Source: a virus. Taken from it: DNA of 44,246 nt. Shown piece by piece: positions 6,961 through 12,347 of the stretch. Every line of letters begins with the position of its first letter. The stretch's first letter is position 1. Position numbers and translations under genes: made by a program. The stretch lies in the IMG/VR virus record IMGVR_UViG_3300026522_000051, positions 1-44,246 of that record, one strand, 5' to 3'. Under the pieces are notes generated by a model. The model saw nothing but the letters and a program-made list of their open reading frames with translations. It was not told the origin of the DNA and searched no databases.

Positions 6961-7680
6961 GCCAAAAATTGATTTAACAAATAAACAATTTGATTATTAT
7001 AAAGTATTAGATAAAAATATTGAAAAATCTAAAAACAGTAAAAATATTTGGTGGAATTGTCAATGTCAGTGTGGGAAAATTTTTACAGCTACTACTACAG
7101 ATATTAATAAATAGAAAGTTAAATCTTGTGGCTGTATGAAATCTTAGCTATTAAGCAAAGCTCATTTATAGGACTTAACTGGAAAAACTTTTGGAGAATT
7201 ATATGTACTAAATCGTAATAAAGAAGCACAAAAAGATGGTCATAAAAAATAGACTATGTATAATTGTTAGTGCTCTTGTGGAAATATTATTACTGTAGAA
7301 CGAAATAAATTAATTTCTCGTGGATAGAGTTCTTGTGGATGTAAAAATTCTATAGGAGAACTTCATATTAATAATTTATTATCCTAGAATAAAATAAAAT
7401 ATATTAGTCAATATACTAATTCTGATTTAATTTCTCCTAATAATGGTTATTTACGCTTTGATTTTGCGATTTTGGATAATGAAAATAAAATAATTAGATT
7501 AATAGAATTTGATGGACCTCAACATCATATTAATGTTAATTATTTTAATGATGATAATATATAGTTTAGAGATAATTTAAAAAACAATTATGCTAAAGAA
7601 CATTAGATTCCTTTAGTTAGGATACCTTATTATAAAAGAGATTGTTTAAAATTAGAAGATTTATTAGGGAATCAATTTTT
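6961..7680 (+). CDS. paralog B of the zinc-ribbon + DUF559-like nuclease family. It is the only plus-strand gene in the window and has 7 in-frame TAG codons.
   Basis: A GGAG ribosome-binding site precedes the start. The frame reads MPKIDLTNKQFDYYKVLD...IWWNCQCQCGK...MYNC*CSCGN...RG*SSCGC...LRFDFAILDNENKIIRLIEFDGPQHH...IPLVRIPYY and ends at a TAA at 7678-7680. TAG sits at positions that are Q or K in the paralogs. Confidence 0.6.
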
Positions 7681-8101
7681 AATTTGATTCCCTAATTTCT
7701 TCTCTTACTCGCATTAAAAGTTTTCCTAAATTATTTTCTCCAGTACCATTACAAACACCCCAATAGCAATCTCCCCAAGTATTACCTTCTTCAAGGTAAG
7801 CATCTCCAGTATCAAGAAGTTTTTGCCTTAACTCAGGAATAGCAAATTTCTTGCGCAATCCTTCAAGCATAATATCCTTTTTGACGTATTCCCAATCAGG
7901 TCTAATCTTAACCTTTCGACCTAATCGTTTTGCTTGGCCTGGTGTAGGAGCGTTAGCAATTTCCAAAAGATCTTCCTGATTAGTCGCTTTCATCGCTTGA
8001 AAGTAGTGTTCCATTGTAGGGAACACTACTCCATTTACTGTGAAAGGACTCAATTCATAATTGCTTAAAAAAGAATATTTGTTTCTAAAACTATCAATCA
8101 T
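7679..8101 (-). CDS. NADAR (YbiA-like, DUF1768) domain protein
   Basis: It has NADAR-like content, including FPTMEHYFQAMK and the pattern E...GN.WGD. Confidence 0.7.
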   Translation of the reverse strand: MIDSFRNKYSFLSNYELSPFTVNGVVFPTMEHYFQAMKATNQEDLLEIANAPTPGQAKRLGRKVKIRPDWEYVKKDIMLEGLRKKFAIPELRQKLLDTGDAYLEEGNTWGDCYWGVCNGTGENNLGKLLMRVREEIRESN

Positions 8102-8104
8102 AAA

Positions 8105-8908
8105 TTAAAACTCCCAACATGTCCCCTGAGAAGGACCAACTCGACTGCACATTGGCATAGGTCTAACCTTATGGATATTTCTCTCATGACGTTCCATAAT
8201 ATTTTTATAAACTTTATAATCTTCAGGAAGAGTGCCAGTCTCAAGGAAAGTATCAAGTACCTCATAAGTAAAACCAAGATTATCTTCATCAGTTTTACCA
8301 CTCAGGCCATCTTCAGGAGCTTTATCAATAAACTTAGCTGGAATACCAAGAGCATAACCAATAGCTTTCACAGCATGAACAGTATAATCACTCAAAGGAG
8401 AAAAATCGCCCGCAGAATCACCAAACTTAGTAGAATAACCTACAAAGTCCTCAGAAGCATTACAAGTATTAACAACTCGACCATGGAGCATACCTGCAAT
8501 CGCATAAAGAACAGACATACGAATTCTTGCTGGGCTGTTGGATGTAACCACCGAATTTTCTCTTACATCATCAAAAGGAAAAGCATTGTCGAAACTTTCA
8601 TAAAAAGTATCACAAATCTTACCGATATTTACTTCAATAGTCTGAATCTGAAGATACTGACCAACTTCATGTGCAATATCAATATCATGCTGCTTACCCT
8701 GCGGCATATAGACACCGATAACTTTATCTTTACCAAGAGCTTCAACACAAAGCTTCGCTGCGACAGTGCTGTCCTTGCCACCGCTCAGTCCAATAATTGC
8801 TTTACAATCAGGACCATTCTCTACAAAATAATTCTTAATCCAGTCTTTAATGTGATTAATTTCAACATTAATATCTTCAGCAATAGGATAAATATGACGA
8901 GCACGCAT
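8105..8908 (-). CDS. nadE: NH3-dependent NAD+ synthetase
   Basis: It has the SGGKDS PP-loop motif and NadE-like overall similarity. Confidence 0.85.
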   Translation of the reverse strand: MRARHIYPIAEDINVEINHIKDWIKNYFVENGPDCKAIIGLSGGKDSTVAAKLCVEALGKDKVIGVYMPQGKQHDIDIAHEVGQYLQIQTIEVNIGKICDTFYESFDNAFPFDDVRENSVVTSNSPARIRMSVLYAIAGMLHGRVVNTCNASEDFVGYSTKFGDSAGDFSPLSDYTVHAVKAIGYALGIPAKFIDKAPEDGLSGKTDEDNLGFTYEVLDTFLETGTLPEDYKVYKNIMERHERNIHKVRPMPMCSRVGPSQGTCWEF

Positions 8909-8909
8909 A

Positions 8910-9365
8910 TTACTTTTCCTCCAATCTATAAATATAAATATTTTTGTTAGTAAGAATATTTTGAATCATGGTACGAATAATTTCCCAATTGGCACCACCA
9001 CGGTCACTACCAATTTTATAAGGAAAAGCAATCGAAGTACCATCCGCAAGTTTAGAGTTTAATTCCTCAAGACAAGAAGCAAATGCTTCATAATTGGTAT
9101 ACCGTTTACCGTCATAACCAAATTTATCTTGAGCATACATATTCGCAATCACATGACCATCATTTGTCTTAACAAGCTGTGTTTTTCCAAGAGGAGCAGG
9201 ATTATTAATAAAATACATCTGATAAGCCTGCGCTACTTCTGGCCATTTATCTTTAATCTGTTTAGCAACACCAGAACCCATTGTTTTCTGACAATTTACT
9301 TGATGGCAAATTACACAGCCATGATTATCAAGTAAATCGCCATTTAATTCGTGATAAGTATTCAT
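8910..9365 (-). CDS. Macro domain protein (ADP-ribose binding or hydrolysing)
   Basis: It contains VICHQVNCQ...MGSGVAKQI. The start is probably the internal ATG at 9365 with a GGAGAA ribosome-binding site. The upstream gene stops 1 nt downstream. Confidence 0.7.
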   Translation of the reverse strand: MNTYHELNGDLLDNHGCVICHQVNCQKTMGSGVAKQIKDKWPEVAQAYQMYFINNPAPLGKTQLVKTNDGHVIANMYAQDKFGYDGKRYTNYEAFASCLEELNSKLADGTSIAFPYKIGSDRGGANWEIIRTMIQNILTNKNIYIYRLEEK

Positions 9366-10881: not shown

Positions 10882-10913
10882 TTTATTTATTCCTTTCTTA
10901 ACTTTCTATAAAT

Positions 10914-10942
10914 ATTATATCATATTTTTATAAAAAAATCAA
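10914..10942 (-). promoter_or_regulatory. sigma70-like promoter of the repeated family
   Basis: The reverse complement reads TTGATTTTTTTATAAAAATATGATATAAT. Confidence 0.55.
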
Positions 10943-10979
10943 AGGAGTAATATTTAATTACTCCTTTGATTTTATCATA

Positions 10980-11816
10980 TTAACCTTCAAGAATTTTTAC
11001 ACGAGGATCATTTTCATCCCGCCAGATGCTATTAGTTGTAAAAATCTGTGCAATTTCATTTCCGTAATAAATATTTCCAGAAGTAATTGTCTTTTCACAA
11101 TGAGTTACATAAAGATAAATGCTGTGCGCTCCAAGCTCTTTAAGAGCTTTAGCCGCATAATAGAAAGTACCACCTTTTGAACAAATATCATCAATAATAA
11201 GAATATTCTTATCCTTGACAATCTCTTTATTCATAACCTCAAGACCGAGAATATTACCCGTTTCCCAATCACGCTTTTTGATACCAAAAGCATAAGGAAA
11301 ATCCAAAAGAGAAGAATAACGCTTCATAGCTCCTTCATCAGGATAAAAAGTAATAAATTTATTCATTACTTCTTTGCGGCTATATCCTTCATTGCCGCCA
11401 GTAAGAAGATATACTTGATTAACTGCTTCTCTAATATAATTAGTAGGTTCAATGACAGTACATCTATTAAGAAGGGCTGCGGCCACATTAGAATGAACAT
11501 CAAGTACCATAACACTCAAAAAATTAAGAGAGTTAATAATATCGCAGAAATACTTCAAAGTAAAAGTATCGCTTTCTTTCTTAACTCTATCCATGCGAGC
11601 ATTAGGAACATAAGGCATATAAAGAATAGGACGGCAATTATGTTCTGCACATTTCTTTGCTAAACAAATCAGAGTAAAAAGCTCTGCATCATTATCATAA
11701 TACCATTCAATTCTAGTACAGCCGGTCAAATCCATACCATTCAGATTGAGAGTGCCATCGGGGAAAGTCTGATTAGTATAGTGAATTTCAAATTCATAAC
11801 CTTTAATACGGAACAT
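10980..11816 (-). CDS. ribose-phosphate pyrophosphokinase-like (Prs family). It is a candidate Adps.
   Basis: It has the ILIIDDICSKGGT PRPP-binding motif. Confidence 0.75.
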   Translation of the reverse strand: MFRIKGYEFEIHYTNQTFPDGTLNLNGMDLTGCTRIEWYYDNDAELFTLICLAKKCAEHNCRPILYMPYVPNARMDRVKKESDTFTLKYFCDIINSLNFLSVMVLDVHSNVAAALLNRCTVIEPTNYIREAVNQVYLLTGGNEGYSRKEVMNKFITFYPDEGAMKRYSSLLDFPYAFGIKKRDWETGNILGLEVMNKEIVKDKNILIIDDICSKGGTFYYAAKALKELGAHSIYLYVTHCEKTITSGNIYYGNEIAQIFTTNSIWRDENDPRVKILEG

Positions 11817-12347
11817 TTAAATTACCTCCACTTGACAAGATTTCATAACGTCCAATGCTTCCATATGCTTTTGAGGAGTGGTGCCAGCACAGCAATCTGC
11901 TTTAACATAAATAGGAATATCAGTAGTTGCTTTAAGAATTAAAGCATTAGAAACAACACAAATATCAGTACAAACACCAACAAGTTCAATACTGATACAT
12001 TTATCTTTAGAAAAATAAGTATTAGTCATAATAAGACTATCGTTTGCTAAATTTACATAACCAAATTTATTCTTATAAAGAATATACTGTGCATAAGGGG
12101 CAAGCTGAGGTACAATTTCCCAACCGTCTGTGTCTTCAATACAATGAACGACAGGAAGATAATGGCCTTCAAGAGTATCTAAATAATTTTCTTTATGTGT
12201 ATCTTTTGTAAAAAGAACAGTATCTCCATTTTTGAGATATTCTTTAATACGCTCTTCAATTCGAGGGATAATTTGCTGAGCTTCTTTACTACCAACTCGC
12301 CCAGTAACGAAATCATTCTGCATATCAATAACAATTAACATTCTCAT
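11817..12347 (-). CDS. pncA: nicotinamidase / isochorismatase-family hydrolase (PncA-like)
   Basis: It has VIDMQNDF and the catalytic Cys in the GVCTDICV motif. Confidence 0.75.
   Translation of the reverse strand: MRMLIVIDMQNDFVTGRVGSKEAQQIIPRIEERIKEYLKNGDTVLFTKDTHKENYLDTLEGHYLPVVHCIEDTDGWEIVPQLAPYAQYILYKNKFGYVNLANDSLIMTNTYFSKDKCISIELVGVCTDICVVSNALILKATTDIPIYVKADCCAGTTPQKHMEALDVMKSCQVEVI

Follow-up and report, generated by a model that had tools for sequence, protein, structure and literature searches.

The NAD+ reconstitution systems described in the literature are NARP1, NARP1-AP, NARP2 and NARP3. In canonical NARP1, the enzyme families Adps and Namat work as a pair, and NAD+ is made from nicotinamide and the pyrophosphorylated form of ADP-ribose (ADPR), ADPR-PP. 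The Adps of phage SpbetaL1 has been characterised biochemically. In the crystal structure of its Namat, Asp215 hydrogen-bonds nicotinamide, Ala242 also lines the nicotinamide pocket, and R40 and F392 form the core of an adenine clamp; the D215A mutation cuts NAD+ production 8.1-fold (PMC12774641). The equivalent residue of human NAMPT, Asp219, has been reported as defining substrate specificity, and among the listed mutants D219S switches substrate affinity while D219A loses activity. Here we describe a related gene cluster in the virus record IMGVR_UViG_3300026522_000051, analysed over positions 1 to 44,246 (the window, 44 kb out of a genome of roughly 201 kb). We put the chances at somewhat better than even that this cluster is a deamidated variant of NARP1 ('deamido-NARP1'), in which NAD+ would be rebuilt via nicotinate and nicotinic acid adenine dinucleotide (NaAD).

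The cluster consists of six minus-strand genes at 7679-12347, and all six open reading frames (ORFs) of the NAD+/ADPR set proposed in a first-pass annotation of this DNA are present. In the direction of transcription, they encode a PncA-type isochorismatase/nicotinamidase (11817-12347; PF00857, 4.2e-27), a Prs/Adps-like protein (10980-11816; phrog_619, 2.4e-67), a Nampt/Namat-like transferase (9367-10881; PF04095 and PF18127; phrog_448, 2.8e-154), a Macro-domain protein (ORF 8910-9404, with the ATG at 9365 as the likely true start; PF01661; phrog_335 'phosphatase', 1.7e-40), the NH3-dependent NAD+ synthetase NadE (8105-8908; PF02540, 1.3e-53; TIGR00552, 171.3 bits against a cut-off of 63.65), and a NADAR-domain protein (7679-8101; PF08719, 1.8e-28; TIGR02464, 96 bits against a cut-off of 73.7). 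Over this region, the window is ~99% identical to a 201-kb IMG/VR contig (L003) that comes from a gut-dominated collection. A megablast search of GenBank phages with the cluster region returned no match, and relatives came from protein-level searches.

The Nampt-like protein is best assigned to the Namat family, with a remodelled pyridine pocket. Among solved structures, it matches the Namat crystals 9w5x/9w5w most closely (E 4e-115); H. ducreyi NadV (1e-89), Xanthomonas Nampt (6e-46) and human NAMPT (1e-40) follow. The same relative order was obtained by fold with an AlphaFold2 (AF2) model (pLDDT 87.7), which reached Foldseek TM scores of 0.85-0.89 to Namat. The catalytic core is retained (D13, Y15, F189, R192, the catalytic His, R306, D308, G360 and D361), and the pocket carries the changes H187G, G213N, D215A and A242S in SpbetaL1 numbering, with Ala212 of the window protein aligning with Asp215 in the HMMER alignment.

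These four columns, which lie in or near the pocket, split 216 family members into two types without exception. In the non-Asp type, H187 is replaced by G or S, G213 by N, K or R (Leu in two sequences), D215 by A or S, and A242 by S. Each of the 178 scored non-Asp sequences lacks Asp215 and has Ser242; 172 of them are Ala-type, 5 are Ser-type and one is from Phage Phass-1. R40, F392 and the catalytic residues are kept throughout the family comparison. The signature was also bimodal among the best 150 cluster representatives at 50% identity, drawn from 1.8 billion proteins, with 91 showing HGDA and about 55 the non-Asp form; Lys213 occurs in about 25 of the non-Asp representatives. Labels found on non-Asp enzymes include nicotinamide, nicotinate and nicotinic-acid phosphoribosyltransferase, and some of the enzymes are unnamed. 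The reaction predicted for the window enzyme is nicotinate + ADPR-PP → NaAD + pyrophosphate (PPi).

A profile comparison with the PncB-type nicotinate phosphoribosyltransferase (NAPRT) of phage G placed a Ser opposite Asp215; its hhalign probability was 1.2% and we gave it no weight. P0002 and 11 other homologs of the Namat-like protein (566-599 aa, 81-92% identical overall) carry ~80 additional residues, inserted after window residue 317 and separating the SGDP motif from the next helix.

Its neighbour, the Prs-like protein, is by sequence a member of the Adps family and not a bona fide Prs. It shares 35% of its residues with SpbetaL1 Adps (E 1e-42) and 25% with E. coli Prs. A hidden Markov model (HMM) built from Adps of canonical, Asp-type NARP1 operons only scored it at 234 bits and E. 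coli Prs at 122. It fails all curated Prs models (TIGR01251, 77.8 bits against a cut-off of 113), and its length is 278 aa, against 315 aa in the Prs comparison. F18, R87, H121, D161, K185, D212 and D213 (ICP1 numbering) are invariant in an alignment of the window protein with the ICP1 and SpbetaL1 Adps. These residues, including the catalytic Lys (K185 in ICP1, K162 in SpbetaL1), are named in the Adps structure paper (PMC13586617), and are mostly common to Prs as well and hence non-discriminating. The predicted reaction is ADPR + ATP → ADPR-PP + AMP. Both the HMM score and the closest structures of its partner bear out the first-pass identification of the adjacent genes as a NARP1-type pair, not a plain Prs with a plain Nampt.

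Of solved structures, the nicotinamidase best matches 1ILW, the pyrazinamidase/nicotinamidase of P. horikoshii (E 5e-15). The alignment of the two shows a conserved Asp/Lys/Cys triad and Asp-x-His...His metal site, and we take these residues to play the roles that they have in the 1ILW structure. The protein scores 31.7 bits with the NCBIfam PncA equivalog model, below the cut-off of 174. It is predicted to convert nicotinamide to nicotinate and NH3, and NadE is predicted to convert NaAD, ATP and NH3 to NAD+.

NadE and PncA are strictly co-inherited with the Namat subfamily that lacks Asp215. The 95 non-Asp loci on IMG/VR viral contigs contain Adps in 92, PncA in 91, NadE in 95, Macro in 76 and NADAR in 21 cases, and missing genes in the viral set coincide with contig ends. 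A scan of species-representative genomes gave matches in at least 584 stretches, and the best 80 of these, the GTDB bacterial non-Asp loci counted here, contain Adps in 74, PncA in 74, NadE in 70, Macro in 8 and NADAR in 6. Beside 37 viral Asp/Glu-type genes, the counts are Adps 35, PncA 0, NadE 0, Macro 5 and NADAR 3. The reference NARP1 phage SpbetaL1 provides the 38th Asp-type locus, with Adps present and PncA and NadE absent, bringing the 38 loci together to 36 with Adps and none with PncA or NadE. Gene order within the module varies across lineages. Among six distant non-Asp representatives, an isochorismatase gene adjoins in five and a NAD synthase gene lies nearby in four, the contigs without one being cut; neither gene stands alongside in two Asp-type representatives.

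A divergent example comes from Phage Phass-1 (OQ749652.1), which carries the same module at 6486-10924 with a Namat-like enzyme of only 35% identity. This enzyme has Ala215, Ser242 and Arg213 together with an uninterrupted canonical clamp motif, GAYTYQYVTRD. The complete genome of Phass-1, a gut phage of the 'code 15 clade', has been published and includes a suppressor tRNA; its NadE (10001-10924) and the preceding ORF are annotated merely as hypothetical proteins. NadE is otherwise rare among GenBank phages (48 of 50,697 records). The NadE-like genes of cyanophages and a pelagiphage were set aside; they lie in sugar-modification clusters and are unrelated to the module.

The strict association with the Namat that lacks Asp215 indicates one linear pathway via nicotinate and NaAD, in place of the optional further salvage routes initially assigned to NadE and the nicotinamidase. 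The clustering of the gene set is far beyond chance, with the set found again on 95 viral contigs and at 80 bacterial loci. A combination that had appeared unusually complete is in fact a conserved module, widespread in gut phages and on Clostridia chromosomes. At one distant non-Asp locus (L223, 7980-9168), a CinA-domain gene (PF02464) lies directly before NadE. The PF02464 family includes PncC, which deamidates nicotinamide mononucleotide (NMN); should the L223 protein have this type of activity, the nicotinate route would be linked to a further deamidase.

Enzymes of the classical routes are missing from these loci. A tblastn search detected a NadD homolog in one of ~215 loci and none in the window, and a PncB-type NAPRT occurs in none of the ~215. 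Window ORFs of at least 100 aa contain no CTP_transf_like, NadM or NadR domain, and plain salvage through an NMN adenylyltransferase, which would have spoken against NARP1, finds no such enzyme in the window. Bacillus phage G carries the classical set of PncA, PncB-type NAPRT, NadD and NadE, and no Prs-like gene. With Nmnat, NadR, PnuC, PncB and NadD absent from the 44-kb window, we rejected NARP2, NARP3 and a full Preiss-Handler set for it.

In the pathway that we favour, a host NADase would split NAD+ into ADPR and nicotinamide, and PncA would convert the nicotinamide to nicotinate with release of NH3. Adps would pyrophosphorylate ADPR to ADPR-PP. The Namat-like enzyme, without the amide-binding Asp, would then join nicotinate to ADPR-PP and form NaAD directly, bypassing nicotinic acid mononucleotide (NaMN) and NadD, and the NH3-dependent NadE would amidate NaAD to NAD+. 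We infer these substrates and products, and with them a counter-defence role in phages, from the gene content, the protein families, the pocket substitutions and the co-inheritance. We see an even chance that the Namat-like enzyme is a nicotinate ADP-ribosyltransferase that, together with PncA, Adps and NadE, serves phages as a counter-measure against NAD+-depleting defences and gut Clostridia as an nrtR-linked operon for recycling ADPR and niacin, where it replaces PncB and NadD. We found no prior description of such a reaction.

Several observations weigh against this interpretation. The selectivity-clamp helix (SCH) motif, GSFTYQYNTRD, reads GSFSFM[...]TYNPYTRD in the window protein, with a 24-aa insertion inside it, and the position of Tyr396 (motif position 7) is occupied by Pro, with a Tyr one residue later. 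In the AF2 model, a ligand-free monomer, the insertion is predicted to form a hairpin with a disordered tip. Because the motif is split and Tyr396 is Pro, the sequence does not secure the use of ADPR-PP. H. ducreyi NadV (9ke8, NMN-bound) resembles the window protein nearly as much as Namat does. There is phylogenetic structure in the correlation with PncA and NadE: in a neighbour-joining tree, the non-Asp sequences form one clade, sister to the Asp clade, with phage and bacterial members interleaved and Phass-1 on a separate long branch. Because there is one large clade plus Phass-1, the correlation reflects few independent events, held stably over deep divergence, and not many convergences. 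The neighbourhoods behind it span +/-10 kb of each gene. Finally, the net chemistry equals that of NARP1, yet the deamidated route costs one extra ATP and no benefit from it is obvious.

An unlikely alternative is an ADPR-free Preiss-Handler module. Here the Prs-like protein would make phosphoribosyl pyrophosphate (PRPP), the Namat-like protein would be a nicotinate phosphoribosyltransferase replacing PncB, and host NadD followed by NadE would complete the route. The pocket changes suit nicotinate equally well in this case, and most members have a disrupted SCH adenine clamp, but R40 and F392 are retained, and their double mutant abolishes ADPR-PP use. Moreover, Phass-1 combines the canonical clamp with the Ala215/Ser242 pair and the same neighbours. 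Namat is able to use PRPP in vitro; the Prs-like partner, however, groups with characterised Adps and fails the Prs models, and SpbetaL1 Adps yielded no product in a Prs assay. NadD is near-universal in bacteria, so chromosomal versions would work with the host enzyme. Phages, on the other hand, keep the Prs-like gene and never add NadD, whereas phage G, which uses the classical route, has NadD and no Prs-like gene.

We also consider it quite improbable that the cluster is canonical NARP1 with independent helpers, as the first-pass annotation had it, with NAD+ made from nicotinamide and ADPR-PP and with PncA and NadE feeding host Preiss-Handler enzymes. Membership of the Adps and Namat families and the intact catalytic core of the Namat-like protein agree with this view. 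SpbetaL1 D215A also retains some activity, its 8.1-fold reduction not being zero, although the D219A mutant of human NAMPT is listed as loss-of-activity, and Asp215 is missing with Ser242 present in 178 of 178 non-Asp sequences. Under canonical chemistry, PncA would destroy the Namat-like enzyme's own substrate. PncA and NadE stand essentially always beside the non-Asp type and beside none of the 38 Asp/Glu-type genes. Of the earlier interpretation, the NARP1-type pair is supported; the roles given to NadE, PncA and Macro, and the idea of exceptional completeness, are not.

The Macro gene begins 1 nt past the stop codon of the Namat-like gene. A profile of its family, which included members from canonical NARP1 operons, matches yeast Poa1p (6LFQ/6LFT) over its full length (E ~1e-17), and the same family is found in the canonical NARP1 operons L088, L091 and L094. 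Poa1p is an ADPR-1''-phosphate phosphatase, and a recent preprint shows that its Macro family extends NARP1 against RES-type NADases (bioRxiv 10.64898/2026.01.28.702374). The window protein fits a Poa1p/Adpp-like enzyme, a predicted ADPR-1''-phosphate phosphatase that would turn the ADPR-1''-phosphate left by RES-type NADases into ADPR and supply it to Adps. Macro is enriched in phage copies, at 80% of viral against 10% of bacterial non-Asp loci.

NADAR is an accessory gene. It is fused N-terminally to NadE in five loci (L132, L170, L185, L199 and L203), from phage as well as bacteria, as single ORFs of 381-402 aa in which NADAR occupies residues 1-136 and NadE residues 138-391. Because of this fusion we take NADAR to be tied to the pathway, where it would probably supply or clean up another ADPR-linked metabolite.

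The Poa1p/Adpp-like assignment describes Macro better than the DarT-type reversal first suggested for it, and its identification as a DarG antitoxin was rejected on score (NF048014, 1.6e-13, 50.6 bits against a cut-off of 250). It is very improbable that the locus is mainly an island for reversing ADP-ribosylation, with Macro and NADAR stripping ADP-ribose from DNA, RNA or protein against DarT-like or ART-type defences and the NAD enzymes secondary: the NADAR family includes hydrolases of ADP-ribosylated guanine, NADAR weakly matches an anti-phage NADAR model and Macro weakly matches the DarG model, but that score is far below its cut-off, the full-length match of the Macro profile is to Poa1p, of the family shown to extend NARP1, and Macro (76 of 95 viral loci) and NADAR (21 of 95) are dispensable where the four NAD genes are constant.

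The best 80 bacterial loci come mostly from metagenome-assembled genomes and isolates of gut Clostridia. In Pseudoruminococcus massiliensis the operon reads pncA-adps-namat(Ala215)-nadE-nrtR (L167:8626-14318; NZ_OLMR01000003.1), with NadE in its glutamine-dependent form of 648 aa. This operon is chromosomal, because it is flanked by agrB and asd/dapA, and represents the phage module in a bacterial housekeeping form. ADPR is the most effective suppressor of NrtR-DNA binding (PMC2330246). A copy in a Dysosmobacter segnis assembly has phage-like flanks.

If the pathway via nicotinate and NaAD is correct, it would add a new enzyme reaction and a new branch of NAD metabolism, and would bring the phages of gut Clostridia into the arms race over NAD between phages and bacteria. 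It would also explain the frequent pairing of a 'nicotinamide' transferase gene with a neighbouring gene for a nicotinamidase, an enzyme that would destroy the transferase's substrate. A four-residue rule at positions 187/213/215/242, HGDA versus x-[N/K]-[A/S]-S, would separate the two enzyme types. In the bacterial version, many gut anaerobes would recycle ADPR directly into NAD+.

The six genes lie 0-3 nt apart, except that 98 nt separate the Adps-like gene from the Namat-like gene. Nearly all predicted genes of the window, and every family-matched one, are on the minus strand. Here we found a promoter-like motif, TTGATTTTTTTATAAAAATATGATATAAT, of the form TTGATT-N17-TATAAT, with an extended -10 TG in most copies. 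It occurs in 11 exact copies in the window against 0.12 expected, all 11 on the minus strand, which substantiates the family promoter noted on first inspection. One copy, with TG, at 12686-12658 is the probable start of the first transcription unit and precedes a wHTH gene, PncA and Adps; a terminator-like hairpin at 12720-12687 lies before it. A second copy at 10942-10914, within the 98-nt gap 5' of the Namat-like gene, precedes Namat-like, Macro, NadE and NADAR. Given these two copies, the cluster is probably made up of two transcription units under one promoter family. The remaining minus-strand copies, also exact matches, are at 1459-1487, 5600-5628, 6612-6640, 16420-16448, 20478-20506, 26322-26350, 30296-30324, 30500-30528 and 31394-31422.

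The first gene of the unit (12351-12623, minus strand) encodes a 90-aa wHTH-like protein with weak MarR_2/DUF7343 matches. Its homologs are restricted to the near-identical contig L003 and Phass-1, and its membership of the module is doubtful, as it is not conserved with it.

An RNA-repair/conflict island at 1607-26239 flanks the NAD cluster. It contains an SPFH protein (1607-3004), an AAA_33 kinase (4801-5415), an RNA ligase (14071-15447), an RNase_T exonuclease (15467-16366), RlaP (18119-18940), a cREC_REC domain protein (19405-19746), a DUF2828/DUF7788/vWA protein (24707-26239) and three metallophosphoesterases. The island also encodes, at 20557-23043, a protein of 828 aa that has Major Vault Protein shoulder and Vault_3 domains; such a vault-like protein is unusual for a phage. 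The 1.1 kb downstream of NADAR (6596-7678) has no long ORF and holds short plus-strand fragments, including one at 6959-7114 with WWNCQCQCGKIF and one at 7472-7564 with IEFDGPQHH, which look like the remains of a decayed endonuclease gene.

Five minus-strand tRNA genes (Cys-GCA, Ala-TGC, Leu-CAA, Leu-TAA and Thr-TGT) lie at 27884-31347, interspersed with promoter-family copies, and an Rfam search returned tRNAs only. Two proteins with the Major tropism determinant N-terminal domain (Mtd_N), at 35447-36898 and 41479-42435, are located near a GC-rich stretch at 33-36 kb. They suggest a diversity-generating system with these as its receptor-binding proteins; a search of 31-44 kb for the template/variable repeats of a diversity-generating retroelement found no pair. 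A protein with two S-layer homology (SLH) domains (26686-27819), together with the matches in Clostridia genomes, hints at a Bacillota host with an S-layer.

In a literature search outside subscription-only papers, we found no publication joining NARP1 with a nicotinamidase. A term search of the key NARP papers returned no NadE, PncA or nicotinamidase, and nicotinic acid only as general background in the NARP3 paper. The results and discussion sections of the aRES preprint likewise contain no link of NARP1 to NadE or PncA. NARP2 (Nampt and Nmnat, phage KVP40) and NARP3 (PnuC and a NadR-like protein, PMC13464706) resemble the window cluster as phage-encoded NAD+ restoration, and differ in the Nmnat, NadR and PnuC that the window lacks.

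NARP1 itself (Osterman et al. 2024, bioRxiv 10.1101/2024.02.11.579819) shares with the window the adjacent Adps and Namat families, the conserved catalytic residues, the phage setting and the predicted use of ADPR-PP. Unlike it, the window Namat-like protein has D215A, G213N, A242S and H187G and an SCH split by the 24-aa insertion, its type of pair is accompanied by PncA and NadE, and its predicted product is NaAD instead of NAD+. NARP1-AP (Adps, Adpp and Namat; bioRxiv 10.64898/2026.01.28.702374) has the same arrangement of a Poa1p-like Macro gene directly after the Namat-like gene, whereas in the window this gene is embedded in a nicotinate-type module. Macro is also far more frequent here, in 80% of viral non-Asp loci compared with 15% of NARP1 phages according to the preprint and 5 of our 37 canonical viral loci. 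With the Preiss-Handler pathway (PncA-PncB-NadD-NadE), the module has in common PncA and NadE as first and last enzymes, NaAD as an intermediate and, in the bacterial version, the link to NrtR. It differs in that Adps and the Namat-like enzyme take the place of PncB and NadD, which act via NaMN, and in that the ADP-ribosyl part of the product would derive from ADPR instead of PRPP and ATP.

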